Shown: positions 11,063 to 37,942 of the stretch, piece by piece | Numbering within the stretch: position 1 is the first letter of the stretch | Layout of the letters: each line of letters opens with the position of its first letter | Assembly: GCA_963681965.1 (NCBI GenBank) | Contig: OY820579.1 | Span: 3,008,001-3,072,000, forward strand | From: a bacterium | GTDB lineage: Bacteria > Electryoneota > JAOADG01 | DNA length: 64,000 nt | Direction of reading: 5' to 3' | The notes under the pieces: generated by a model | What the model saw: only the letters and a program-made list of their open reading frames with translations | Databases searched by the model: none | What the model was told of the DNA's origin: nothing | Made by a program: the position numbers and the translations under genes

Positions 11063-11180
11063 TACCCCTGGTTTGAGAAGCTTTGTTGGAATTGACCTAA
11101 TATAATTGAAAAACTGTCAATTCTTCTTGCATGTTGAATTGGCGATCGATAAACTTTGGTGCAGCAAAAGTGAGGAATAT

Positions 11181-11738
11181 ATGCCATTTTTATTTTTAAT
11201 TATTGCCTTAGTCGTCGTAATTCTATGGATTGTAGGAATTTATAATGGATTAGTGCGGGGACGTAAACAAGTCGACAATAGCTGGTCGCAAATCGACGTC
11301 CAATTGAAGCGACGCCACGATCTGATCCCCAATCTGGTTGAAACAGTCAAAGGTTACGCCAAACACGAGCGTGAACTTCTGGAAAACATTACCAAGGCGC
11401 GTGCTCAGGCAGTCGATGCCCGTGATCGAGGGATCGGTCAACAAATCTCTACTGAAAATGCTTTGAGCGGAATGCTTCGAAATCTGATGGTTTCAGTTGA
11501 AGCCTATCCCGATCTGAAAGCCAACACCAACTTTTTAGCACTGCAGGAAGAACTATCCAGCACTGAAAACAAGATTGGCTTTGCCCGACAGCACTACAAC
11601 GATGTTACGACGAATTACAATATTAAAACCGAAGTGTTTCCAAGCAATATTTTCGCCGGGATGTTCGGTTTCAAGCAGTGCGAACTGTGGCAAATCACCG
11701 ATGCCGCTGAGCGCGAAGCACCCAAAGTTTCATTTTAA
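11181..11738 (+). CDS. lemA: LemA family protein
   Basis: YNGLV...WSQIDVQLKRRHDLIPNLVETVKGY, YPDLKAN, ENKIGFARQHYN; start moved to ATG 11181 behind GAGGA. Confidence 0.95.
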   Translation: MPFLFLIIALVVVILWIVGIYNGLVRGRKQVDNSWSQIDVQLKRRHDLIPNLVETVKGYAKHERELLENITKARAQAVDARDRGIGQQISTENALSGMLRNLMVSVEAYPDLKANTNFLALQEELSSTENKIGFARQHYNDVTTNYNIKTEVFPSNIFAGMFGFKQCELWQITDAAEREAPKVSF

Positions 11739-11753
11739 TACTACTATCTCAGC

Positions 11754-12701
11754 ATGAACGAAACGAATCGAGTGACTTTTCTTACTCTTATTGCTCAGAA
11801 CAAGCGCGCCAGCATTCTGTTGACGGTACTGATGTGTCTTCTGATAATGATACTCGGCTTTGTCATCGGCAAAGCTTGGTTCGGCAATGGCGAAATCGGT
11901 ATGGCGCTTGCCTTTGTCTTGAGTGTCGTTTTCAGTTTCATCAGTTGGTACGGTGGTGGCGATATCATTCTTTCGATGTCGGGTGCAAAGCAAATTGAAA
12001 AGAAAGATCACCCGAAACTATTCAATGTGGTTGAAGAAGTCGCGATCGCCGCCGGCATCCCAATGCCGCGGATCTACATCATCGAGGATACCGCTCCGAA
12101 TGCCTTTGCCACCGGTCGCGATCCCGATAATGCGGTCGTTGCAATCACTCGCGGTCTACTCGAAAAATTGGACCGCGACGAGCTGCAAGGTGTGATTGCA
12201 CATGAAATCGCACATATTCGCAATTTCGATATCCGATTTGCGATGCTGATGGCAGTGATGGTCGGCGTGATCGTCTTATTAAGCGATTTCTTTTTGCGTT
12301 CGTCTTGGTTCGGATTAGGTGGTCGTAGACGCGACCGTGACAGCGATAGCGGCGGTGGCGGATACTGGTTTATCGTCGCATTGGTCTTGGCAATTTTAGC
12401 GCCAATCTTTGCGAAAATTATCCAATTGGCGATTAGCCGAAAGCGCGAATATCTTGCCGATGCGACAGCCGTTCAATTTACAAGATATCCTGACGGATTG
12501 GCGCGGGCTTTACAAAAAATCGCCGCAGACGAAGAACCGCTCGAAAGCGCAAATCGTGCGACACAACACTTGTACATCGTCAATCCGTTGAAGAATTTTA
12601 AACAAGGGGTCGATAGTGTGTTCAGTACACACCCCCCCATCGAATCCCGGATCGCACTACTTCGACAACTTGGTGCCGGTCCGACAACTACTCCCAAATA
12701 G
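11754..12701 (+). CDS. htpX: HtpX-like M48 membrane zinc metalloprotease
   Basis: PNAFATG, HEIAH (HExxH), SRKREYLAD, STHPP; classic lemA-htpX pair. Confidence 0.93.
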   Translation: MNETNRVTFLTLIAQNKRASILLTVLMCLLIMILGFVIGKAWFGNGEIGMALAFVLSVVFSFISWYGGGDIILSMSGAKQIEKKDHPKLFNVVEEVAIAAGIPMPRIYIIEDTAPNAFATGRDPDNAVVAITRGLLEKLDRDELQGVIAHEIAHIRNFDIRFAMLMAVMVGVIVLLSDFFLRSSWFGLGGRRRDRDSDSGGGGYWFIVALVLAILAPIFAKIIQLAISRKREYLADATAVQFTRYPDGLARALQKIAADEEPLESANRATQHLYIVNPLKNFKQGVDSVFSTHPPIESRIALLRQLGAGPTTTPK

Positions 12702-12707
12702 GAGGTA

Positions 12708-13241
12708 ATGATGGAAGAATTGAGCCAAGTACCGACCAATACTATTACTCAACCCTCGCCTACTGTTACTCAACCCACGCCGGTATATGCGGGATTTTGG
12801 CGACGTGTTCTTGCTGCGATTATCGATTCGATCTTACTTCAAGTCGTTATGTCGATCATCTCGGTCATTTTCGGTATCGGATCAGCCCTGTCGATGCTCC
12901 CGATGCTGGCAACGGATAACGACGCTGCAATTGCCGGAATGATTGCATCACTCGTCGCATCCATGATGATGTTGATCATCGTCTCAACGATTGTTAACTG
13001 GTTGTATTATTCGTTGATGGAAAGTTCTTCGCTGCAGGCGTCGCTGGGTAAGATGGCAATCGGTATCGTTGTTACCGATCTGGACGGAAATCGAATTACT
13101 TTTTCTCGAGCGACCGGGCGATATTTCTCAAAGATTATCTCGTCGATCATTCTCTGTATCGGCTACATCATGGTCGGCTTTACTGCGAAAAAACAGGGGC
13201 TTCACGATATCATTGCCGGTACGTTAGTCGTCAAAAAGTAA
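12708..13241 (+). CDS. RDD family membrane protein (copy 1)
   Basis: YAGFWRRVLAAIID, SLGKMAIG, KQGLHDIIAGT. Confidence 0.92.
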   Translation: MMEELSQVPTNTITQPSPTVTQPTPVYAGFWRRVLAAIIDSILLQVVMSIISVIFGIGSALSMLPMLATDNDAAIAGMIASLVASMMMLIIVSTIVNWLYYSLMESSSLQASLGKMAIGIVVTDLDGNRITFSRATGRYFSKIISSIILCIGYIMVGFTAKKQGLHDIIAGTLVVKK

Positions 13242-13330
13242 TATCGAATAATCATTCAATTTATGTAGAACCATCATCGCATTGCTCTCCAGCAGTGTGA
13301 ATTAACTAGAACCACTCTTCGGGAGATAAA

Positions 13331-13840
13331 ATGAGCGAATTGGAACAGCAACCGGTAACGCCAGTACCACCGCAACCGTTAGTCAATGCAGGATTTTGGT
13401 TGCGATTGCTAGCACATATTATCGATAAAATTATTGTTTCCTCTTTTCTTTCGATTTTTTCGGTCTTGTTCGGAATTAAAGCGGCAATATCGATGATTCC
13501 CATGTTGATCAATGGCGATGCTGCTACGATCACAACGTTCGTCACAACATTAATTTCATCGATGATGATGTTCATCCCGATCGCGATTCTGACTAAGTGG
13601 CTCTATTTCACGCTGATGGAGAGTTCCTCGATGCAGGCAACTGTAGGGAAAATGGCACTCGGCATCAAAGTAACCGATCTTAACGGTGAAAGAGTTACCT
13701 TTGCACGCGCAACCGGACGTCATTTTTCGAAAATCATCTCATCCGCGATTCTCGGTATCGGCTATATCATGGCAGCATTTACCGAAAAGAAACAGGGATT
13801 GCACGATATCATTGCGGGAACACTTGTCGTAAAAAAGTAG
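13331..13840 (+). CDS. RDD family membrane protein (copy 2, tandem paralog)
   Basis: AGFWLRLLAHIID, TVGKMALG, KQGLHDIIAGT. Confidence 0.92.
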   Translation: MSELEQQPVTPVPPQPLVNAGFWLRLLAHIIDKIIVSSFLSIFSVLFGIKAAISMIPMLINGDAATITTFVTTLISSMMMFIPIAILTKWLYFTLMESSSMQATVGKMALGIKVTDLNGERVTFARATGRHFSKIISSAILGIGYIMAAFTEKKQGLHDIIAGTLVVKK

Positions 13841-13867
13841 ATCGATTGATCACTCTTTGAATGACGT

Positions 13868-13901
13868 AAAAAAAACAGGCATCAGTATGCCTGTTTTTTT
13901 T
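13868..13901. terminator. Bidirectional intrinsic terminator
   Basis: A-run, CAGGCAT-CAGT-ATGCCTG, T-run, between convergent genes. Confidence 0.85.
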
Positions 13902-13916
13902 ACAATGTTGGATGAA

Positions 13917-14135
13917 CTATATCGACATGTCGATTGCTTGACCGAGGAAGCTCACACCGTCGGGACGGAGTCGTTTTTGAAGGTCTTCACGAAGTAATAT
14001 TACACCGGTCGGTTGGTCCAATGGCTGTGGATCGGGAAAAACGACCTCATCACTATACCTCCGACGTTCGCCGGGATAGGCTGAAAGCAAAGGATCCATC
14101 GGTCGAGGACCGCTAATTTCAAAATTTGCAGGCAT
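13917..14135 (-). CDS. Small hypothetical protein, 72 aa (ORF B), C-terminus LGQAIDMSI
   Basis: ATG at 14135 preceded by GAGGT SD; ends just before the bidirectional terminator; tail resembles the G-x-x-I-D-x-x C-terminal motif of YjfB-like small proteins (resemblance only). Confidence 0.55.
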   Translation of the reverse strand: MPANFEISGPRPMDPLLSAYPGERRRYSDEVVFPDPQPLDQPTGVILLREDLQKRLRPDGVSFLGQAIDMSI

Positions 14136-14203
14136 GTGCAAATACCTCAAGCAAAGAGTACAATTTGTCTCAAGTCGTACCTGATTATTGTCGATACATA
14201 ATC

Positions 14204-14349
14204 GCAGGCCAACGGGTTCCACCGCGCCGGTTCCCTAGGTGCAGTTGCCCTCCGGTCAGATCAGCTCTAGTTCCCACCGCCGGAACGGAGCCGTTTGAAC
14301 CTCCGTCGGTCTGGTCATCCAGTACCAGCGGGACTGAACCCTTGGCCGC
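14204..14349 (-). ncRNA. Candidate ~146-nt structured RNA of unknown family
   Basis: GC-rich intergenic block. Ends pair over ~25 bp (GGCCAA-GGGUUC...CGCUGGU with ACCGGCG...GAACCC-G-UUGGCC), with internal hairpins CUGG-AUGA-CCAG and GACGGAG..CUCCGUU. G.U wobbles work only on the minus strand. Confidence 0.6.
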
Positions 14350-14366
14350 CCAACTTTAAGTATTTC

Positions 14367-14399
14367 AAAACGACCCCACTAGCGATGAGCGGGGTCGTT
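14367..14399 (-). terminator. Intrinsic terminator-like hairpin overlapping the ORF A stop codon
   Basis: AACGACCCCGCU-CAUCGCU-AGUGGGGUCGUU followed by a short U-run. Confidence 0.6.
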
Positions 14400-14702
14400 C
14401 TGCTCTTCCTCCCGCGGGGTCACCGGTCCGGGGAGATCAAAACCATCGATTAAGCCAAGTCGATACCAACCCAATGAAATCGCTTCGGTGTCTTCGGGTG
14501 TTACCCCTTCGGACGATTCCGGAAGTGCCTTTTGAGCTTCAAACAGCATCCGACCGGCATCGGAAATCTCTACTACATCCACAATCTGATTCACCAGACG
14601 TTCGACTGAAACCGGCATCGATGTTACTTGCAGCGCATACGAAGCCGTGATTGACGGCACCGGCTGTACATTTGATTCAGGAATCGTCTGGAGCGCATTC
14701 AT
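14379..14702 (-). CDS. Small acidic hypothetical protein, 107 aa (ORF A)
   Basis: ATG at 14702 with GAGGT SD; contains DVVEISDAGR, similar to the D-x-V-E-I-S motif of FlgM-like small proteins (resemblance only). Confidence 0.6.
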   Translation of the reverse strand: MNALQTIPESNVQPVPSITASYALQVTSMPVSVERLVNQIVDVVEISDAGRMLFEAQKALPESSEGVTPEDTEAISLGWYRLGLIDGFDLPGPVTPREEEQNDPAHR

Positions 14703-14795
14703 TGGGATAACCTCTTTCAAACTCTCCGCTCATCCGGGATTGACACAGATGAGCGGTGACCTATGGGGGCGCAGTACTACTTCGTTAGATGCTTA

Positions 14796-14811
14796 TGCAA
14801 ATGCCGTTCCA
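14796..14811 (-). promoter_or_regulatory. Sigma54 (-24/-12) promoter
   Basis: Minus strand TGGAACGGCATTTGCA: GG-N10-GC with one mismatch to TGGCACG-N4-TTGCW, ~95 nt upstream of ORF A. Confidence 0.7.
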
Positions 14812-14863
14812 TACTGTTAAGTACAATCATATTAATTGGATAGAAAAAACGTGAATTGAGGAT

Positions 14864-14906
14864 CTGTTACGAAGAGGTAACAGTAACTTGAAGTATAGTT
14901 CAAGTT
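14864..14906. promoter_or_regulatory. Two adjacent inverted repeats, candidate activator-binding (UAS) sites
   Basis: CTGTTAC-N6-GTAACAG (14864-14883) and AACTTGAA-N6-TTCAAGTT (14885-14906), about 80-120 bp upstream of the predicted sigma54 start site. Confidence 0.5.
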
Positions 14907-15454
14907 GGCAGGTGACAACTTCCTCATAATAATCATATATTATTGTTATATTACGACTTAGGAAATTTCAATAACGTTACAAACAGAATTAGTTACACGT
15001 CGCTCTAAATGCTGGAGCAGATCAGAGATACACAAGAGAATCTGGTTTTTACTCAATTATCTGTGAATCTTTCCGATTGAAAAGTACTAGAAGTACTCGG
15101 CGATCTTCTCTTTCATCAAGCGAGGCTAAAATGCTCTTCATACTCAGTGAAGAACATTAGATAATTGTGTAAGATGATGTTAAGTCGTCCAAGTTCACTA
15201 ATTTTGATCAAATGAATTAATATTTTTTTGCCGATGTGATTGACCTTGAAGATCCACACTGACATATTACTCCTGTGAAGAAACAATTTATTAGATCTTT
15301 CGAGAGAATTCTTCACTGTTCATTTTGGCTTCACTTTTTTTATAATCGATGTACTTACTATTCCCTACAAGCAAACGTATTGTTCAAAATCGTCACATAA
15401 TTACTCAATTCAAATAGTCGATTTTTTTTTACCGATGGAGAGATCAATTTTTCA

Positions 15455-17044
15455 ATGATGCTTCTCGTTAAAAGCACACTAATTATTTTTCTCACTACTC
15501 TGCTCTGTCCATTGGCTCGAGCCAATATCTTATTTGTACCGACACAGTTTCAATCGATTGACAGCGCTGAAAGTTCAGCTTCGATGAATGATACAATAAT
15601 TCTATCCAACGGTTCCTATACCGATCAGATAACCCTACATACGTCATTGACGATTGGCTCATTTTATATACTCACTCATGACTCTAATTCGATACGGCAG
15701 ACGAATTGGTTACCGACGAATTCGATTCCATTAATCGATCCTGATTCAAATTCTGTCAATTTGATCGGATTGCACTTTATCTCGTCATCGCAACCAGTAA
15801 CTCAGTTTTGTGTTATCACCGGTCGAGCAAGTGGCTTTCAACTCGATCACTGTGTTTTTTCAGGTACCTTTGATGCCTCGCTAACCAACGTTGCAACCAT
15901 ATCTTTGAATCCTATTTCAGCCGCAAATTTCAATGTGACAAATTGCATTTTCGAGACTACGAATCTAAGTGCAGGTCGGTTGATTGCATTTCTGGGACCC
16001 AACGGTGGTCGGGTTTATATATCGAATTGCGTTTTTTTGGGTCGATCGACCGGTGCTGGACACACAATTTACATCACAAATACTTCAGGCAGCACAGTCG
16101 TTCGGAACTGCCAATTTCGCCATCACGGTGATGGCATTTATATCAGTAGTAATGCTAGTTATGTCGATGGTTGCGAATTTGTCGGATTAAACGATCAAGC
16201 AATTGTGATGCAGGGACGAACCGATTCTGCCATTGTTTCGAACTGTCGGTTCGATTCGATTTCTGCCAATTCAGGTATGTTTGGAGTTGTTGAGTTTTTT
16301 AGTAGTCCGGGTCGAAATATCATGCGGAACTGTACTGTTTCAAATGTCTTTGCTACGAATAATAGTTATTTGCTTTGGATTTCCACATCTTTGGTCCGGA
16401 TATATAATTGCTTGATGTATAACAATATCGTTCTACGTTTCATTAGCCTGACTAATGCTGATTCCGGTTCGAGTTTCGATTCGTGTCGAGTTCGGAATAG
16501 TAGTTTCTTATATGGAGTATATTCATTATCAAACACCCCACGGTTTCATATGTCCTGGTGTGATTTTGACGGAGTATATATTGATACATTGACTCGAAGT
16601 ATCGATTCAATATTTGCCCCGAATTGCTGGTGGGGTGATCCAACCGGACCACGTTATAATGGGAATCCTAATGGCTTAGGGATGCTACTCTCGAATAATA
16701 TTAATCCAATTCCGTGGCGTTTATCGCCCGTTTTTCCTACCGACGAAGTATCCGATCGCAACATTTCAGATCTCCTTCCGAATCGGATATCCGTCGATCC
16801 GGCATTTCCCAATCCATTCAACTCTTCCACCACGCTCTCCTACACCCTTCCGATCAATGCTCACATCGATCTTCGTCTGTACGATCTCAACGGACGTGAG
16901 ATGCAGACACTCGTCAGTCAGCGACAGAATGCCGGCACCTATCGTATACTGCTGGACGGTTCGGGGCATGCTAGCGGAACCTATTTTGTGCGATTGCAGG
17001 CAGGCGAATTTTCGAAGACTCAGAAGATCGTGCTGTTGAAGTAA
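15455..17044 (+). CDS. Secreted right-handed beta-helix (pectin-lyase-like) protein with T9SS/FlgD-type C-terminal sorting domain
   Basis: Signal peptide; VP.QFQSI..A start; repeated NC.F/GC.F beta-helix units; NCWWGDPTGP; FPNPFNSSTT...SGTYFVRL...KIVLLK. Confidence 0.8.
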   Translation: MMLLVKSTLIIFLTTLLCPLARANILFVPTQFQSIDSAESSASMNDTIILSNGSYTDQITLHTSLTIGSFYILTHDSNSIRQTNWLPTNSIPLIDPDSNSVNLIGLHFISSSQPVTQFCVITGRASGFQLDHCVFSGTFDASLTNVATISLNPISAANFNVTNCIFETTNLSAGRLIAFLGPNGGRVYISNCVFLGRSTGAGHTIYITNTSGSTVVRNCQFRHHGDGIYISSNASYVDGCEFVGLNDQAIVMQGRTDSAIVSNCRFDSISANSGMFGVVEFFSSPGRNIMRNCTVSNVFATNNSYLLWISTSLVRIYNCLMYNNIVLRFISLTNADSGSSFDSCRVRNSSFLYGVYSLSNTPRFHMSWCDFDGVYIDTLTRSIDSIFAPNCWWGDPTGPRYNGNPNGLGMLLSNNINPIPWRLSPVFPTDEVSDRNISDLLPNRISVDPAFPNPFNSSTTLSYTLPINAHIDLRLYDLNGREMQTLVSQRQNAGTYRILLDGSGHASGTYFVRLQAGEFSKTQKIVLLK

Positions 17045-17185: not shown

Positions 17186-17589
17186 TTGCGTTACTTAGTC
17201 GAAGAGGCTATTCTCAAAGAACCCTTTATCATTGCTTTCTCCCCCTTACCGATGATTTGAACTTCTTGTATTGTCGTTCTCGTAGTACCTTTCGTTGAAG
17301 CAAAAGACTGTCTTCGACAGTTTTGGTTTCCGCTAGTATGATCTGTTGATCGAATTGATAGAGTTCGGTGAGTTGATCGCGAATCATTTGAATGATTACC
17401 GCTTTTCGATCTGAAGTAAATCCTACGAATTCCTGATGCATCGGAGCATCATTAATGATAGTAGCGACGCAATTCAAAACCGGGGATATGAGAAAATATG
17501 ATTTCCAAAATTCTCATGCTGGACCATGTTTAATATTGACTGATAATTTTTATTTTATTATTTTTGAAAGGTTAATTTTCGAGGCAAAA

Positions 17590-18939
17590 ATGCGTCATTG
17601 GCTTCGGGTTTTTACGGATATCGGCGAAAATTGGTTTGATTTCTTGCATTCTATCTGTATCACGCTTAACTGGTTATATAAATTTAAATTAGTTGCGATG
17701 ATGCTTATGTTGGTTTCCGTTTCAATTTCACAACCGAATCTTCCTCGCATTGGTCAATATCAACTCCAGTTTTTATCGTCCAATGAGCGCAATCTTGCGA
17801 TTCGTGATGGACACGCATTTGTTACTGGGTGGGCTAGTGGGTTAACCGTAATCGACTTTGCAAACCGGACATCGCCTTCCTTTGTCGCTAGTATTAATAG
17901 TATGGGAATGAACACGCGTGGTATTGCGCTGACCACTCACTATGCTTTCGTCACCAATCCCGACTCAGGTGTTTATGCCATCGATATTTCGCGATACGAT
18001 TCAATGCGAGTCATTTCGTATTTGCCACTTATCGGTGCATGCCGTATGAAAAGTCTGGGTATATATGCTTACGTTGCTGCTTTCGGTCGTGATACAACAA
18101 GTTCAGGGTTGTACATTATCGATATTTCCAATCCGAATGTGCTTGTAATCAATGGTTTCGTTCAAGTACGTCAGATTAATGCATTATGTATCGATAATGG
18201 AATTGCATTTTGTGCTGCGCGTCCCGGAATCGTCACCATCGACATTACTAACCCTGCTTCACCGATCAGAATTGGATCTGCAAGGTGTCCATATCCGGAT
18301 GGTATCGCTATTCAAAATCAGCGCGCGTACGTTGCGAACGACTCAGGACTTTGTATCTTCGACGTAAGCCAACCAGAGAATCCGGTTAGAATTGGATTTT
18401 ATTACATGGATGCACCTACTTGGACAACCGATATCTCTATACAAAATCAATTCGCATTTCTACCGGTGTTCGGAGTTGGTATTCGAATGCTAAATATGAG
18501 TAATCCATCTACAGTAACTTTGCTCGCAATGAATGAAATGCCTGACCAGCGCAATCGTATACATAGTTGCGTAATCGATGAAAACTTCCTCTATACTGCA
18601 GAAGCACAGTACGTTGGTGTATTCAATTTCACTTCATTTCTTCCGGTCGAAGAATTTTCGCAGTCAACGCTTCCTGCAAGTATAACAGTCTCACCGCCAT
18701 ATCCGAATCCAGCGAATGCTGTCACAACTATTGCTTTCTCACTTCCCAGCAATTCGTTTGTCGAAGCGATGCTCTATGATGTGTCGGGGCGGATTGTACA
18801 ACAACTCGTACACGAGCGAATGATTTCTGGGACTCATCGGATACAATTGAATACCCTCAATTTCCCAAGCGGAACATATTTCTGTCGCATAAAAACTGAA
18901 GACGAAATTCTGATTAAGAAGTTAGTTGTAATGAAGTAG
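17590..18939 (+). CDS. LVIVD-repeat beta-propeller protein with T9SS/FlgD-type C-terminal sorting domain
   Basis: Repeated GL.(I/V)ID(I/V)SNP..P units; YPNPAN...SGTYFCRI...KLVVMK. Start uncertain: ATG 17590 behind GAGG, or 17698. Confidence 0.8.
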   Translation: MRHWLRVFTDIGENWFDFLHSICITLNWLYKFKLVAMMLMLVSVSISQPNLPRIGQYQLQFLSSNERNLAIRDGHAFVTGWASGLTVIDFANRTSPSFVASINSMGMNTRGIALTTHYAFVTNPDSGVYAIDISRYDSMRVISYLPLIGACRMKSLGIYAYVAAFGRDTTSSGLYIIDISNPNVLVINGFVQVRQINALCIDNGIAFCAARPGIVTIDITNPASPIRIGSARCPYPDGIAIQNQRAYVANDSGLCIFDVSQPENPVRIGFYYMDAPTWTTDISIQNQFAFLPVFGVGIRMLNMSNPSTVTLLAMNEMPDQRNRIHSCVIDENFLYTAEAQYVGVFNFTSFLPVEEFSQSTLPASITVSPPYPNPANAVTTIAFSLPSNSFVEAMLYDVSGRIVQQLVHERMISGTHRIQLNTLNFPSGTYFCRIKTEDEILIKKLVVMK

Positions 18940-19127: not shown

Positions 19128-20498
19128 TTACGCCGCAACTGTATCTTCACGAAGGGTACTGAGGTCGATTTCCAGTTGGACAATCTTCTCGTAGAGATTT
19201 TTGCGGGCAATCTTAAGCAATTCAGCGGCTTGCGATACATTCCCATCGCACTTCTGCAGCACCCGTTGAATAAATTCGCGTTCGAAATGTTTACGGGCAT
19301 CTTTCAGAGATAGCATCTCGCCAACACTCTCTACGGTTGTGCTTGTCGGTTTCAATTTATCGCCAAGATCGTCGACTGTGATCATATCGTCCGAAGCCAT
19401 CACCACGGCACGTTCAATCACATTCTCGAGTTCCCGGATGTTCCCGTTCCAACGGTACTGCTTCAGGGCTTGTAGCGCCTGTGCCGTGATGGTAATCGGC
19501 GCTTTCCCGCACTGCAAGCGAAACCGCTCGATAAAATGTTTGGCGATCGCTTCGATATCGTCGACACGTTCGCGTAATGGCGGTAATTTTATCGTAATCA
19601 CATTCAATCGATAGTAGAGGTCTTCGCGAAATCGACCCGCCTTCACCTCTTCATGCAGATCGCGCCACGAAGCTGCAATCACGCGCACATCGACCTTAAT
19701 CGTCTGTTCCCCGCCTACTCGCTCGAACGAGCGCTCCTGCAATACTCGCAATAATTTTACCTGCACCGATAGCGGAAGTTCACCGACTTCATCCAAAAAG
19801 ATCGTACCGGTATGAGCTAATTCGAATCGCCCCTTCCGCTGTTTTATCGCACCAGTGAAGGCACCCGCTTCGTGTCCGAATAACTCGGTTTCCAATAGCG
19901 ATTCCGGCAGCGAGGCACAAGAGACTTTGATATACGGTTTATTGCTACGATTCGAATAATGGCGAATCATGTTCGCCATTACCTCTTTGCCGGTACCGGT
20001 TTCACCCAAGATCAAAACAGTCGCAGGAACTTGCGCAATTTTATCGATCACCGCACGATACAGCTTGGACATCTCTTCATTGTGCGAAAAAGAGGGGAAT
20101 GGCACTGTCTTATTTTTTTCTTGTTGCGATGACCACTGCTTCGAGTATTTTTCAACCAATTCGAAAATTATTTTATAGGAGAGTGGTTTAATCATTAAAT
20201 CGACAGCTCCGCGTTTCATCGCGGTTACAGCCAATTCGATTTCCGGTCGCATCGTCGTTGCGATAACTGGTGTATTCGATCGATTGCGCGTACACCAGTC
20301 GATCAATTCCGTACCGCCGATATCCGATAGCACCAGATCGGTGATCACCAGATCGTAATGCTCGGTTTCCAATAGCTTCAATGCAGTCAAACCGTTTTTC
20401 TCAACGCGATATGTCCACCCAGCCGCTCGAAACTGCGAAACCAGTTGTTGAGCGGATTGCGTGTCTTCATCGACAATGAGTAAGTTCGGCTTCGCCAT
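19128..20498 (-). CDS. Sigma54-dependent response regulator (NtrC/AtoC/ZraR family: REC, AAA+, Fis HTH)
   Basis: GETGTGKE, ELFGHEAGAFTGA, FLDEVGE, FREDLYYRLNV, W.GNIREL.N, GNVSQAA..L.I.R..LY. Confidence 0.95.
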   Translation of the reverse strand: MAKPNLLIVDEDTQSAQQLVSQFRAAGWTYRVEKNGLTALKLLETEHYDLVITDLVLSDIGGTELIDWCTRNRSNTPVIATTMRPEIELAVTAMKRGAVDLMIKPLSYKIIFELVEKYSKQWSSQQEKNKTVPFPSFSHNEEMSKLYRAVIDKIAQVPATVLILGETGTGKEVMANMIRHYSNRSNKPYIKVSCASLPESLLETELFGHEAGAFTGAIKQRKGRFELAHTGTIFLDEVGELPLSVQVKLLRVLQERSFERVGGEQTIKVDVRVIAASWRDLHEEVKAGRFREDLYYRLNVITIKLPPLRERVDDIEAIAKHFIERFRLQCGKAPITITAQALQALKQYRWNGNIRELENVIERAVVMASDDMITVDDLGDKLKPTSTTVESVGEMLSLKDARKHFEREFIQRVLQKCDGNVSQAAELLKIARKNLYEKIVQLEIDLSTLREDTVAA

Positions 20499-22693
20499 TA
20501 CCAATTACCTATCGGTGCTTTCAGCGTGTCGGGAATAATTTTCTTCAACTCCGGTCCCGGTGTAAATCCTAACGGCTGTTTCAAGCTCTGCTGCAGGATG
20601 ATTCCCCAATGATAGTCGCGATTCGATTTCGATATCAGCCAGGTTAATTGTTCCCGCGCTTCCGTATTCCGACCGAGTTTGACCAGAATTTGATATTTAA
20701 GAATATTTGCAATGACGTTATCGATTTCGAAATCCAGAATTCGATTTATTCGCACTAATGCCGAATCGAATTTGGAATTTTTGAAATCGATTTGCGCAAT
20801 CCGGATCAGTACTTCCGTTTGCGTTGTGTCGATCTTTTCCGCCTCAACCAGCATCCGTCGCGCTTCGACCAAATCGTTCTTTTCCTGCAACAGTTGCCCT
20901 AAACCCAGAAGAACTTTCGGTCGATCGGTTTCGGAACAACTCCGCAAAAGTTTCCGATAGAGCTGCTCTTTCTCTTCCCGTTCCATCCGATTCAACGAGT
21001 CTTTCGGCGTTTTCACGATGATCGAATCAGATCCATCACTCTCTGAAAAACTAGTCGGGTCGATATCGGGTCCCGTCAAACCAATCCGGGTATACTCCTG
21101 CCGAGCCATATCCGAGAAACCCATCTGGTTATACAATCCTGCCAATTGAAAATGAGCTTCGTAAAAAAACGGTTCGATCGCTAACGCTTTGTGATAATTC
21201 TCGAGTGCTTCAAACAGTTTACCCTGCCGTTTGTTCACTTGTGCCCAGTTAAAATAATCCATCATCGGTGAGCGAAGACTGGATAAGAACGTGTTATCGT
21301 AGTTTGCGAGCAAAAAGCCCGGAACCAGACACATGATTCCCAGCATTACTTTATCGGCATTATGTTCGACAAGCTTGCGCGAGATATAATAAATTCCCGT
21401 AGCCGAAAGGAGTATTCCGATGGGAACGAGCGGAAAGCGGTATTCTGAACACGTGTAAAATAGCAGATTTCCAATGATGTAGGTAAGTGCTAAGATTATA
21501 ATTATAAGCCATTTACGCCAGAATTTATAAATCGCAAAAATACCTAATCCAGTAAACGTGAGAATAAAAGCCCACCCGAACGGGAGCATCCGAACCATGA
21601 CAGAATAGTCTTTAATGACGAAATATGTCAAATTGGTCGGTATTTCGGTCTTGTTGCTGAACCAAAGTAATTTGCGCCACTCTAATTTGAGGTAATTGAT
21701 CGGGTGGGTTACGATCCAACTTATTCCAGTTTTCAGCCAGTAGTTCGCTGCTTCATTTTGACTTAGTTCTCGACCTGTTCGTTTGGAAGCCTCAATCCGG
21801 TAATCAGCTTCTTCTCGATCCGGTTCAGCCGAAGTTAAAAATAACGGTTCATCGTAAATACCAGAGGCATTTTCGTTATTTCCAACCCAAAAAACCATCC
21901 CTCCGGAAGTCTGAGTCAATCCAAAATGACCGGAATAGCTGTAATTCCGAATGAGAAACGGGAGCATCACAATAATTGCTCCTGCGATCATTAATCCGGA
22001 TTTCTTTAATAAATCGAACCGATTCATTTGAAAAAATAGACCAAAAACCGGGTAAAGGAGCAGAAAAAGCATCGGGATCGGTCGGAATAAAATCGAGATT
22101 CCGATCATCGCACCACCGAGAACCGTTTTCCACCAAATCGTTTGTTGATCCACATCGATCAGGAAATACATTGCAGCTACTGTGAGAAAGAGAATGGGTG
22201 AGGTTGTTAAGATTGTACCGTTATAGACCGGTGTCATGTAATAACCAACCCACAACAACATCGCAATGCGAACAGCAGCCTCAGGTAGAAGCTTACGCGC
22301 CACTTTCAACATTAGTACAAGCGCGAATCCTTCGAGTAGCGTTTGGACGAACATCACCAGATATGGACTGGGAGTTACCAACCAATACAAAATGCCGACA
22401 AAGGTTGGATATCCCGGATTCATAAACCAAATGTCTTTTCCCCAGCCATGCTCGACGAATTTTAAAGCATATTGGTGATAATGAAGCGAATCAATGATCA
22501 AAGTATCTGTGATCGCGGTGCCATTGATTTGGATTAAATGAACGATTCGCGAGATCAACCAAACAATCCAAAGCAAAGCTGGTATTTTTGGGTGCGACCA
22601 TAACCGATCAATCGTGCGATAAATGGGGTCGAGAATTTCTGCAGATTTGTTCCGATTAGCCATGAGGTTCATCCTTTCCAGAGTTGTCATCAC
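20498..22693 (-). CDS. GT-C (ArnT/PMT_2-like) membrane glycosyltransferase with C-terminal TPR repeats
   Basis: DSLHYH..A, PGYP.F, RP, RNY...G.FWVGNN..ASG.Y, RFPLVP, many TM segments, then TPRs. Stop overlaps the regulator start (TAATG); exact start uncertain. Confidence 0.8.
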   Translation of the reverse strand: MMTTLERMNLMANRNKSAEILDPIYRTIDRLWSHPKIPALLWIVWLISRIVHLIQINGTAITDTLIIDSLHYHQYALKFVEHGWGKDIWFMNPGYPTFVGILYWLVTPSPYLVMFVQTLLEGFALVLMLKVARKLLPEAAVRIAMLLWVGYYMTPVYNGTILTTSPILFLTVAAMYFLIDVDQQTIWWKTVLGGAMIGISILFRPIPMLFLLLYPVFGLFFQMNRFDLLKKSGLMIAGAIIVMLPFLIRNYSYSGHFGLTQTSGGMVFWVGNNENASGIYDEPLFLTSAEPDREEADYRIEASKRTGRELSQNEAANYWLKTGISWIVTHPINYLKLEWRKLLWFSNKTEIPTNLTYFVIKDYSVMVRMLPFGWAFILTFTGLGIFAIYKFWRKWLIIIILALTYIIGNLLFYTCSEYRFPLVPIGILLSATGIYYISRKLVEHNADKVMLGIMCLVPGFLLANYDNTFLSSLRSPMMDYFNWAQVNKRQGKLFEALENYHKALAIEPFFYEAHFQLAGLYNQMGFSDMARQEYTRIGLTGPDIDPTSFSESDGSDSIIVKTPKDSLNRMEREEKEQLYRKLLRSCSETDRPKVLLGLGQLLQEKNDLVEARRMLVEAEKIDTTQTEVLIRIAQIDFKNSKFDSALVRINRILDFEIDNVIANILKYQILVKLGRNTEAREQLTWLISKSNRDYHWGIILQQSLKQPLGFTPGPELKKIIPDTLKAPIGNW

Positions 22694-37627: not shown

Positions 37628-37942
37628 ATGCAAACATTCATTAAAAAAGATGTAGTCGAGCGAACCGCCAGCAAAGCGAATGTCGATGTCAAAGAAGTCG
37701 CAAAAGTAGTGGAATCGGTTTTTACCGTATTGCGCGAAATTATGATGAATGCCGATCCCGGTGTTCGCATCGAAATTCGTGATTTTGGTGTATTTGAAGT
37801 GAAACAAACGGCGGCAAAACCGAAAGCGCGAAATCCGAAGAAACCGGATCAGGTGATCTATATTCCACCTCGGCGCAAGACGCACTTCAAGCCCGGAAAA
37901 TTGCTGAAGAATGCGTTAAAAGAACCGTTTGCTGTCGCTTAG
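37628..37942 (+). CDS. HU/IHF family DNA-binding protein
   Basis: RIEIRDFGVFEV, ARNPK, FKPGKLLK. Confidence 0.93.
   Translation: MQTFIKKDVVERTASKANVDVKEVAKVVESVFTVLREIMMNADPGVRIEIRDFGVFEVKQTAAKPKARNPKKPDQVIYIPPRRKTHFKPGKLLKNALKEPFAVA

Follow-up and report, generated by a model that had tools for sequence, protein, structure and literature searches.

A putative sigma-28-dependent structured RNA convergent with a sigma-54-linked small-protein gene at a flagella-associated locus of the Electryoneota

To our knowledge, feedback on earlier flagellar tiers by sigma-28-dependent small RNAs (sRNAs) has so far been described only for Campylobacter and a few cultured Proteobacteria. Here, a locus of the uncultivated phylum Electryoneota is described that most likely encodes an RNA in a comparable position. 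It was found in a stretch of 64,000 nucleotides (hereafter the window; positions 3,008,001 to 3,072,000 of contig OY820579.1, assembly GCA_963681965.1) and occupies positions 13917 to 14906. Read on the minus strand, it consists of two palindromes, a sigma-54 promoter, a leader hairpin, an open reading frame (ORF) for 107 amino acids (ORF A), a hairpin over its stop codon, a GC-rich fold-back, a second ORF for 72 amino acids (ORF B) and a terminator. An earlier note on this DNA had listed all of these elements, and they are present in the sequence, but it had combined them into a single sigma-54-driven module and overlooked that the opposite strand carries a promoter of sigma-28 (FliA) type at 14170-14196. 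Judged from sequence comparison, the locus is probably a small flagellar-regulon node made up of several transcription units rather than a single operon, and the fold-back is most likely a separate gene for a sigma-28-dependent sRNA of about 190 nt, convergent with ORF A.

In Campylobacter, the sigma-28-dependent RNAs CjNC1 and CjNC4 are predicted to pair with the 5' untranslated regions of sigma-54-dependent genes and to repress them partly (PMC4626219). As far as these RNAs are presented in that report, they share with the sRNA proposed here that a late tier acts on a middle tier, and they differ in being short paralogs (37 of 44 nt identical) with no relation in sequence or structure to the RNA of the window (PMC4626219). 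The latter is single-copy, about 190 nt long, predicted to be multi-helical, and located next to its proposed target gene. In Campylobacter jejuni, CJnc230 is RpoN-dependent, is processed from the flgE mRNA and represses flgM, and CJnc170 is FliA-dependent (PMC11187230). The likeness to the present locus lies, in the portion of that work drawn on here, in a circuit of two sRNAs tied to the RpoN and FliA tiers, with the mRNA of a sigma-28 regulator (flgM) as a direct target. The difference is that the repressor of flgM is RpoN-dependent there, whereas the sRNA of the window is predicted to be FliA-dependent and to have a sigma-54-dependent target, and ORF A is only a candidate for a FlgM. Sigma-28-dependent sRNAs of Escherichia coli (MotR, FliX and others) are, according to the part of the literature cited, derived from untranslated regions and tune flagellar synthesis post-transcriptionally (PMC10578931). 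In contrast to MotR and FliX as characterised there, the sRNA of the window appears to come from an independent gene that has a promoter of its own and, in the relatives, a terminator as well. The case thus suggests that, in an uncultivated phylum, this regulatory position is taken by an unrelated RNA that is much larger and structured. If the reading of the sRNA and of the sigma-54 promoter is true, it would link two flagellar control tiers there, with an sRNA that two families have retained along with its proposed target, and with co-varying pairing sites.

For comparison, 79 genomes of the phylum were available, including the 4.24-Mb genome of the window (G000). G001 belongs to the same genus, G000 to G003 form family f1, and f3 is the sister family; at the DNA level, 17 loci were compared (G000, G003 and 15 of f3). 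The order of ORF A, GC-rich element and ORF B, whose conservation in relatives the earlier note had named as a check, recurs in a second genus of f1. There, in G003, the activator gene, the upstream activating sequence (UAS), the sigma-54 promoter, ORF A, a GC-rich spacer of about 300 nt and ORF B follow each other in identical order. An alignment of the G000 and G003 DNA retained the 20-nt palindrome, an AT-rich block, the promoter and both ends of the fold-back. Comparison of the genomes supports the promoters, the enhancer site, the coding status of both ORFs, the structure and strand of the RNA and the co-occurrence with flagella; that sigma-54 and sigma-28 act here, and that the RNA is made and represses ORF A, we infer.

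The opposite-strand promoter became apparent from a conserved TTATCGGCA..N..AACTTGAG that stands just before the next gene when the loci are read in the orientation of ORF A. On the other strand, this box reads TCAAGTT-N12/13-GCCGATAA, which has the form of a FliA promoter, when set against the general sigma-28 consensus. In the window it is TCAAGTC-N13-GTCGATA (14170-14196, plus strand), with -35 and -10 boxes of sigma-28 type at the right spacing, and it points into the GC-rich element; the counterpart in G003 is TCAAGTT-N13-GTCGAAA. A search with the pattern T[CA]AAGnn-N12/13-[GT][CT]CGA[TA][AG] yielded exactly one site on the opposite strand within 1.3 kb past ORF A in all 16 loci with sequence there. 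The background in G000 was 112 matches in 8.49 Mb of both strands, that is 0.013 per kb and strand, or about 0.02 expected per locus. The genome of the window encodes FliA (TIGR02479, 253.5 bits against a cut-off of 189.6 bits) and four flagellins, two of which carry similar boxes, TAAAGTT-N12-GCCGATG and TAAAGTT-N13-GTCGAAG, upstream of their genes. With a stricter pattern, 25 matches were left genome-wide, and four of them had an ORF with a ribosome-binding site within 200 nt, namely the two flagellins, the box at 14170-14196 and one other. The TCAAG form also occurs in front of a gene, as TCAAGTT-N13-GCCGATA at G000:C1:839787-839813 (plus strand) directly precedes GGAGG and an ATG. The protein encoded after this last box contains a VRAHEAAHLAAAG motif.

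The seventeenth locus (L048) is cut by a contig end and was therefore not scored for the sigma-28 promoter. The last 100 nt or so of this contig (G049:C109), soon after the ORF A homolog, consist of an adapter-like sequence, presumably a sequencing adapter, followed by a poly-A/CA run, and the contig end is probably an assembly artefact.

The box might also be something other than a sigma-28 promoter, such as a protein-binding site, an RNA motif in the leader of the next gene, or a promoter of extracytoplasmic function (ECF) type on the ORF strand with GGAACTT as its -35 box. Such readings would account for its constant position 10-35 nt before the ribosome-binding site of the next gene, for a -35 box that is mostly TCAAG and not the flagellin-type TAAAG, and for the GGAACTTGAG that several f3 loci show on the ORF strand, which we take to resemble an ECF -35 box. 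We nevertheless regard them as highly improbable. Both half-sites and the 12-13-nt spacing fit sigma-28 while the spacer sequence varies freely, terminators stand at a fixed distance on the sigma-28 strand, and a box of the TCAAG form is found directly before a ribosome-binding site and start codon elsewhere in G000, as mentioned above. An ECF promoter in particular is difficult to reconcile with L041, in which the putative -35 box is only 28 nt away from the ATG, too short a distance to accommodate a -10 box, a start and the GGGAGG ribosome-binding site that is visible there, and with the window and G003, which have no GGAAC.

The element into which the promoter points is a GC-rich fold-back at about 14204-14350, predicted to be read on the plus strand, single-copy and with 60% GC as compared to 47% in the genome. 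The structured sRNA predicted from it would extend over 14204-14400 on the plus strand, about 190-200 nt, with both start and end being predictions. On the plus strand the fold reaches -82.7 kcal/mol (z -4.4), and 0 of 200 shuffled sequences folded as well. Its closing helix, P1, is formed by a conserved 5' end AGGnCAACCG that pairs with CGGTTGnCCT some 130-150 nt downstream (14207-14219 with 14336-14347 in the window), and its outer part is kept in all 11 aligned loci of f1 and f3. RNAalifold of nine f3 sequences on the sigma-28 strand gave 10 P1 pairs with 14 G-U cells and a CG/UA exchange, and 94% of the P1 cells in f3 were paired. Read on the ORF strand, P1 is reduced to 6 pairs and shows A-C mismatches, at a consensus energy of -11.4 as compared to -15.9 kcal/mol on the sigma-28 strand.

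Intrinsic terminators were found on the sigma-28 strand 160-214 nt past the -10 box in 9 of the 16 loci, including G003, in which the hairpin by the ORF A stop is followed by TTTTTCT on the sRNA strand and by no T-run on the ORF strand. The corresponding strong hairpin of the window (14368-14400) holds the ORF A stop codon in its loop, has a TTTT on the minus strand (14400-14367) and is the terminator of ORF A. Judging from the relatives, the plus-strand sRNA likely ends there as well. No reading frame is conserved across the fold-back, since the alignment of G000 with G003 has gaps of 1, 2 and 3 nt in it. Taken together, a promoter of its own, structure and frame-breaking gaps are the features of a free-standing sRNA gene that are present in the window, and a terminator on the RNA strand is present in nine relatives, the T-run of the window lying on the other strand. 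It is the conserved sigma-28 promoter, the strand fit of P1 and the terminators of the relatives on which the assignment of the fold-back to a plus-strand sRNA is based.

As MAFFT misaligned the inner helices, a pattern made of the promoter and the RNA 5' end was used to search for further copies of the RNA. Each genome with one of the 11 known loci has a single site, as does G051 (f3, at a contig edge), and the 9 matches elsewhere are background, since a reversed control gave 12. The earlier note could not assign the elements to a known family, and this is still the case, as no known protein or RNA family was matched. In Rfam, the best match within window positions 13000-16000 had an E of 0.65 and lay on the terminator, with no family for the fold-back, and eight related loci gave only a sub-threshold match to mir-9080 that is located elsewhere (36.5 bits against a gathering threshold of 100). 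The mir-9080 match (L063:1716-1822, minus strand, E 1.2e-4) coincides with a long and perfect inverted repeat, located in G036 between the sRNA and ORF A, and is probably due to nothing more than an extended hairpin. The RNA family is considered undescribed on the grounds of these Rfam searches and of unnamed database entries, with no literature search specific to the RNA family.

The single minus-strand transcript with one RNA and two peptides that had been proposed in the earlier note would run from the sigma-54 promoter through ORF A, an RNA domain (a 3' untranslated element, a processed sRNA or the leader of ORF B) and ORF B. That all three parts share one strand and the same order in G000 and G003 is in agreement with it, as is the stable fold of the element on the minus strand (z -3.5). 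The missing minus-strand T-run after the ORF A hairpin of G003 makes read-through plausible there, and no clear separate promoter for ORF B was found, the sole candidate being a sigma-70-like sequence with 9 of 12 matches at 14212-14184. However, the conserved sigma-28-type promoter is directed against such a transcript in all 16 loci, nine loci have terminators on the other strand, the G-U pairs of P1 turn into A-C mismatches on the minus strand, f3 keeps the RNA element while unrelated genes replace ORF B, and in G000 the stretch from ORF A to the element is interrupted by a terminator with a T-run. A single transcript of this kind is thus unlikely, and the proposal was not upheld by the comparison with the relatives. 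Read-through and a plus-strand sRNA are not mutually exclusive. The case also illustrates that a structured RNA between two genes can be put on the wrong strand when only one genome is read.

On the side of ORF A, the sigma-54 (-24/-12) promoter TGGAACGGCATTTGCA at 14796-14811 on the minus strand is near-consensus with canonical spacing. It is among 19 matches to the strict pattern TGG[CA]AC-N5-TTGC[AT] on both strands of the 4.24-Mb genome, reads TGGCACGGGAGTTGT in G003, and a TGGCAY-N5-TTG precedes the ORF A homolog in 17 of 17 loci, in line with the earlier note. The genome also encodes RpoN (162.7 bits). Upstream of the promoter, an enhancer-like palindrome CTGTTACCTCTTCGTAACAG with the form CTGTTAC-N6-GTAACAG (14864-14883) is conserved, and TGTTAC-N6-GTAACA occurs only once, at this site, in the 4.24-Mb genome. 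G003 reads CTGTTACCTATCCGTAACAG at the equivalent place, with two changes in the spacer as compared to G000. A related motif, GTGCTACGAAAAGGTGTCA, was found 5' of the sigma-54 promoter in 13 of 15 f3 loci and in 14 of 17 loci overall; on its other strand, the site of the window reads CTGTTACGAAGAGGTAACAG, for comparison with this motif. A second palindrome, AACTTGAA-N6-TTCAAGTT (14885-14906), is unique in the genome and was seen in G000 only, with no counterpart in the G000/G003 alignment. Both palindromes that had been taken for UAS-like sites are therefore present, and the conserved one is the palindrome at 14864-14883. Between it and the promoter lies an AT-rich block (14823-14845), of which TTCTATC..ATTAAT and GTGATTGT are conserved in G003. 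This block may be a DNA-bending site for IHF or HU, where we assume the IHF consensus as we know it, and an HU/IHF-family gene is located in the window at 37643-37918.

FlgR, FleR and FlrC are NtrC-family two-component activators of sigma-54-dependent flagellar genes. The window encodes a protein of this type at 19128-20504 on the minus strand (Pfam Response_reg, Sigma54_activat, AAA_lid_14 and HTH_8), so that both the activator and the HU/IHF protein mentioned in the earlier note are indeed there. As in FlgR, FleR and FlrC, the activator has a receiver domain, an AAA+ domain with a GAFTGA motif visible in the alignment and a helix-turn-helix (HTH) domain of Fis type, and it is accompanied by an upstream site, a -24/-12 promoter and a flagellated host. 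It differs from them in a genome-unique enhancer, a gene for a tetratricopeptide repeat (TPR) protein beside it and no adjoining histidine kinase gene. It is likely the cognate activator of the ORF A promoter, because its counterpart in G003, with 60% identity over 397 amino acids, sits directly upstream of ORF A on the same strand. G001, which is of the same genus and also has neither flagellin nor the unit, yielded no close ortholog. In f3, the activator is encoded away from ORF A, and the four f3 genomes searched had one best match each with 42-46% identity, clearly above the next match and full-length in three, whereas the match in G036 was cut at residue 381.

The TPR protein (731 amino acids, 20498-22693, minus strand) matches Pfam TPR families, and its N-terminus gave a weak sub-threshold match to PMT_2 (E 0.0017). 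The end of its gene overlaps the start of the activator gene, and the two are hence probably one operon; a TPR protein gene precedes the best activator match in two of three f3 loci examined (G024 and G015), as in the window. As the enhancer site is unique in the genome, the activator appears to control one promoter only, which would give a one-promoter sigma-54 regulon of an activator, a unique enhancer and one small gene, in addition to two unnamed motility-linked families of small proteins. In G003, the activator abuts ORF A directly, and this suggests that their separation in G000 is due to an insertion or rearrangement. Between activator and ORF A, the window has two genes for proteins with type IX secretion C-terminal sorting domains (15455-17044 and 17455-18939, plus strand).

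A possible contact between the sRNA and the ORF A mRNA became visible in f3. The ORF A leader of most f3 loci forms a hairpin CCGGUG-UGGCAG-CACCGG, and the f3 sRNA contains one or two hairpins with the loop CUGCCA, the exact complement of the leader loop UGGCAG. The stems of the CUGCCA hairpins covary in 4 of 5 pairs while the loop is constant, a pattern that is expected of RNA loops and not of DNA operators. In addition, positions of about 100-125 of the f3 sRNA (often CGUCUCC) show perfect complementarity of 7-11 nt to the cognate leader, at its ribosome-binding site or close to it. Full-length RNAduplex runs returned meaningless long looped duplexes, and counts of perfect complementarity and windowed duplexes were used instead. 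Cognate f3 pairs had a mean of 8.9 nt of perfect complementarity as compared to 5.9 nt in 68 non-cognate pairs from other genera. In some lineages, the pairing sequence changes jointly on both partners, with GTCGTCTCCGA opposite TCGGAGACGAC in G024, ACTCCGAAC opposite GTTCGGAGT in G010, and CATTCCATCC opposite GGATGGAATG in G015 and G032. The sRNA predicted for the window would, moreover, be a perfect antisense of the last 22 nt of ORF A, as well as of any transcript reading through to ORF B.

The earlier note had also given a hint at flagella, which was right in spirit, since within f1 the unit is found only in the two flagellin-bearing genomes. G000 and G003 have flagellin, the activator, ORF A and ORF B, and G001 (96% complete) and G002 (100% complete) lack flagellin, ORF A and ORF B, the activator having been searched for in the former but not in G002.

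From these data, a mechanism can be proposed in which the NtrC-type regulator (19128-20504) would bind to the palindrome at 14864-14883 and activate the sigma-54 promoter at 14796-14811, with the resulting ORF A mRNA ending mostly at the hairpin over the stop codon. FliA would start transcription at 14170-14196 on the opposite strand, and a structured non-coding RNA of about 190 nt would run towards ORF A and end at the same hairpin. Once sigma-28 is active, late in flagellar assembly, the sRNA would pair with the ORF A mRNA and less ORF A would be made. This last step is proposed by analogy with f3, in which the pairing would combine a loop-loop contact with the leader hairpin and pairing over the ribosome-binding site.

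Several observations weigh against this picture. The -35 box is TCAAG in most loci (TAAAG in two f3 loci) as compared to TAAAG at the flagellin promoters of G000. Besides its plus-strand fold, the fold-back is also stable on the minus strand, where 0 of 200 shuffled sequences folded as well and one of its hairpins gains a U-G pair. The structure on the sigma-28 strand had 90.7% of its cells paired as compared to 84.1% in shuffled alignments (0 of 500 reached it) and 33-41% with slid partners, but it had been derived from the same alignment that was used for this comparison. The T-run of the window hairpin at 14368-14400 is on the ORF A strand only, which makes the 3' end of the sRNA in G000 uncertain. 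As to the pairing, the cognate partner failed to rank first in 3 of 7 independent f3 lineages, some of the complementarity is generic and would fit ribosome-binding sites in general, and the loop motifs of f3 are absent from f1. In f1, the duplexes between sRNA and leader were no better than with shuffled sRNA, with a best duplex of -23.1 in G000, where shuffled sRNA averaged -20.8 and reached -24.1 at the lowest, and a duplex in G003 that was weaker than the shuffled mean. Finally, the co-occurrence with flagella in f1 rests on four related genomes, and flagellin is found in 71 of the 79 genomes of the phylum, whereas the unit is clear only in f1 and f3, and it is thus not a general flagellar component.

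ORF A (14379-14702, minus strand) encodes a small protein of 107 amino acids with AGAGGT before its ATG. Both ORF A and ORF B had been regarded as real genes, and the comparison of G000 with G003 agrees with this. For ORF A, the proportion of nonsynonymous differences (pN) was 0.37 and that of synonymous differences (pS) was 0.73 with synonymous sites saturated, giving a ratio of nonsynonymous to synonymous rates (dN/dS) of 0.19, which indicates purifying selection, and for ORF B, pN was 0.29 and pS was 0.95, again saturated. Both are taken as coding genes because pS is saturated while pN is held down. The ORF A family comprises proteins of about 100 amino acids with the motifs RL..l.D.VEIS.aGR and eAi..WY..GY and is found in 21 of the 79 genomes of the phylum, of which 17 are clear (G000, G003 and 15 of 16 in f3) and 4 are weak. 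With residues 2-107 used as protein query, 22 proteins in a large database matched, all of them unnamed and without a Pfam domain, and one is labelled as belonging to a metagenome-assembled genome (MAG) of Candidatus Electryonea clarkiae; a word-based search found only ORF A itself. The family is restricted to the phylum. A low-confidence AlphaFold2 (AF2) model of ORF A had a mean predicted local distance difference test (pLDDT) score of 63, with 30 unstructured N-terminal residues and three helices.

The 86-nt leader of ORF A contains a hairpin with a stem of about 11 pairs (about 14726-14756, minus strand). Its fold is unremarkable (z -1.5, with 15 of 200 shuffled sequences as good) and its sequence is not conserved in G003, where the AGGA of the ribosome-binding site lies within a shorter leader hairpin.

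For a short motif of ORF A, the earlier note had pointed out a resemblance, and no more than that, to FlgM, the anti-sigma factor of FliA (PF04316). The likeness consists in the small size, a D.VEIS..a followed later by AI..(G/S)WY at FlgM-like spacing, and the flagellar context. Membership in Pfam FlgM was not found for the protein of the window, which matched 0 Pfam families at E<=10. Sub-threshold matches to FlgM were obtained for 4 of 23 family members (best E 0.0026, 18.4 bits against a cut-off of 25), and these cover the D.VEIS..a...AI..G.Y region. The profile of the family found no FlgM structure in the PDB at E<=10, and hhalign of the ORF A family against a separate, FlgM-like gene that the flagellar cluster of G000 contains gave a probability of 0.4%. 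Judged from these comparisons, ORF A would be a small flagellar-regulon protein whose likeness to FlgM is only a resemblance. The separate gene (L015:1324-1821, on G000:C1 at about 1.505 Mb) encodes a protein of 165 amino acids with two copies of G.YD....V...IA.R that scores 24 bits with Pfam FlgM (cut-off 25), adjoins genes that resemble fliD and fliS by eye, and probably is the canonical FlgM of G000. Three strict sigma-54 promoter matches (1475648, 1483814 and 1492731) are located in the same flagellar region.

ORF A could still be an anti-sigma-28 protein, that is a second and divergent FlgM, in which case a sigma-54-driven ORF A would act against FliA, and the sRNA made through FliA against ORF A, as a switch of mutual inhibition. 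We see this extension as rather doubtful. FlgM has been reported to have an unstructured N-terminal part followed by helices, and the model of ORF A is of this kind. The sub-threshold matches of the four family members, the linkage to a sigma-28 promoter and the co-occurrence with flagella in f1 also speak for it, and, in the part of the work on Campylobacter considered here, a sigma-54-dependent flgM under sRNA control is known (PMC11187230). On the other hand, the failure of Pfam, of the PDB search and of hhalign to link ORF A to FlgM, the FlgM candidate already present in the flagellar cluster, and a family that is not clearly found in most flagellated families of the phylum all speak against an anti-sigma-28 role. 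A complex prediction of ORF A (alignment A4) with the FliA of G000, which was run without controls, scored 0.01 against a mark of 0.32 and was counted neither way. An even more far-reaching idea, which we think improbable, is a self-contained bistable switch between the sigma tiers, in which a dedicated pair of sensor and activator with sigma-54 would drive a FlgM-like ORF A, a FliA-made sRNA would counteract it by kissing loops and pairing at the ribosome-binding site, and ORF B or a 430-aa protein of f3 would serve as the lineage-specific output.

ORF B (13917-14135, minus strand) encodes 72 amino acids, is preceded by GAGGT and has 72% identity to the G003 protein in a local BLASTP alignment (67% in a global one). 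The earlier note had made it part of the module and compared a short motif of it to YjfB-like proteins. ORF B does not belong to the conserved core, as it is present in 2 of the 79 genomes with other genes in its place elsewhere, and no membership in a YjfB-like family was found, with no Pfam family at E<=10 and one full-length relative among 1.84 billion representative proteins, the three other matches being short stretches of long proteins. A word-based search found ORF B itself and the G003 protein. In metagenome_contigs, none of 368 pattern stretches was confirmed, and in genome_contigs, 2 of 33 pattern stretches passed tblastn with only 24 and 14 residues from unrelated MAGs. Searching the ORFs 3' of ORF A in the 16 other loci with an ORF B profile yielded nothing below E 0.17 except the G003 protein. 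Within the genomes and databases compared, ORF B is a lineage-specific coding orphan. In its AF2 model, which is of low confidence (pLDDT 56), coil prevails. Only 34 nt lie between the start of ORF B and the -35 box of the sigma-28 promoter, so an ORF B mRNA must begin inside or beyond the sRNA gene on the other strand. ESM Atlas leads for ORF A and ORF B went to unnamed clusters, and the nearest named ones (DUF3914, Cj0814, DUF3879, TP_0700 and DUF6033, at 0.86-0.90) were at chance level.

In most f3 genomes, the place of ORF B is taken by a gene for a conserved acidic protein of about 420-450 amino acids (L041:3019-4278, L039:6564-7844 and L049:6713-7972, all on the plus strand, and six other f3 loci). 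These proteins start with MS..L..S....FLGRN..SR.LG.S and end with YGLGLGER.YGDY.RVA, the three copies scanned of the nine seen had no Pfam family, and a radical-SAM HemN-like gene is next to them. A possible origin of ORF B as a remnant of the N-terminus of this protein, with which it has ..FLG.. in common, had no statistical support. Three loci of genus g5 (L044, L045 and L046) have two ORFs of about 90-100 amino acids downstream instead of the 430-aa gene. Their RNA has neither the P1 helix nor CUGCCA loops, and a second GTGCTACGAAAAGGTGTCA is located between the ORF A stop and the sigma-28 promoter, inside the predicted transcribed stretch.

Beyond ORF B, a bidirectional intrinsic terminator with an A-run, a hairpin and a T-run (13868-13901, both strands) is common to ORF B and a convergent RDD-family gene, and weak Rfam matches at this terminator are an effect of the hairpin only. 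The convergent row of genes (11106-13840, plus strand), which shares this terminator, encodes LemA, an M48 peptidase and two tandem RDD-family membrane proteins.

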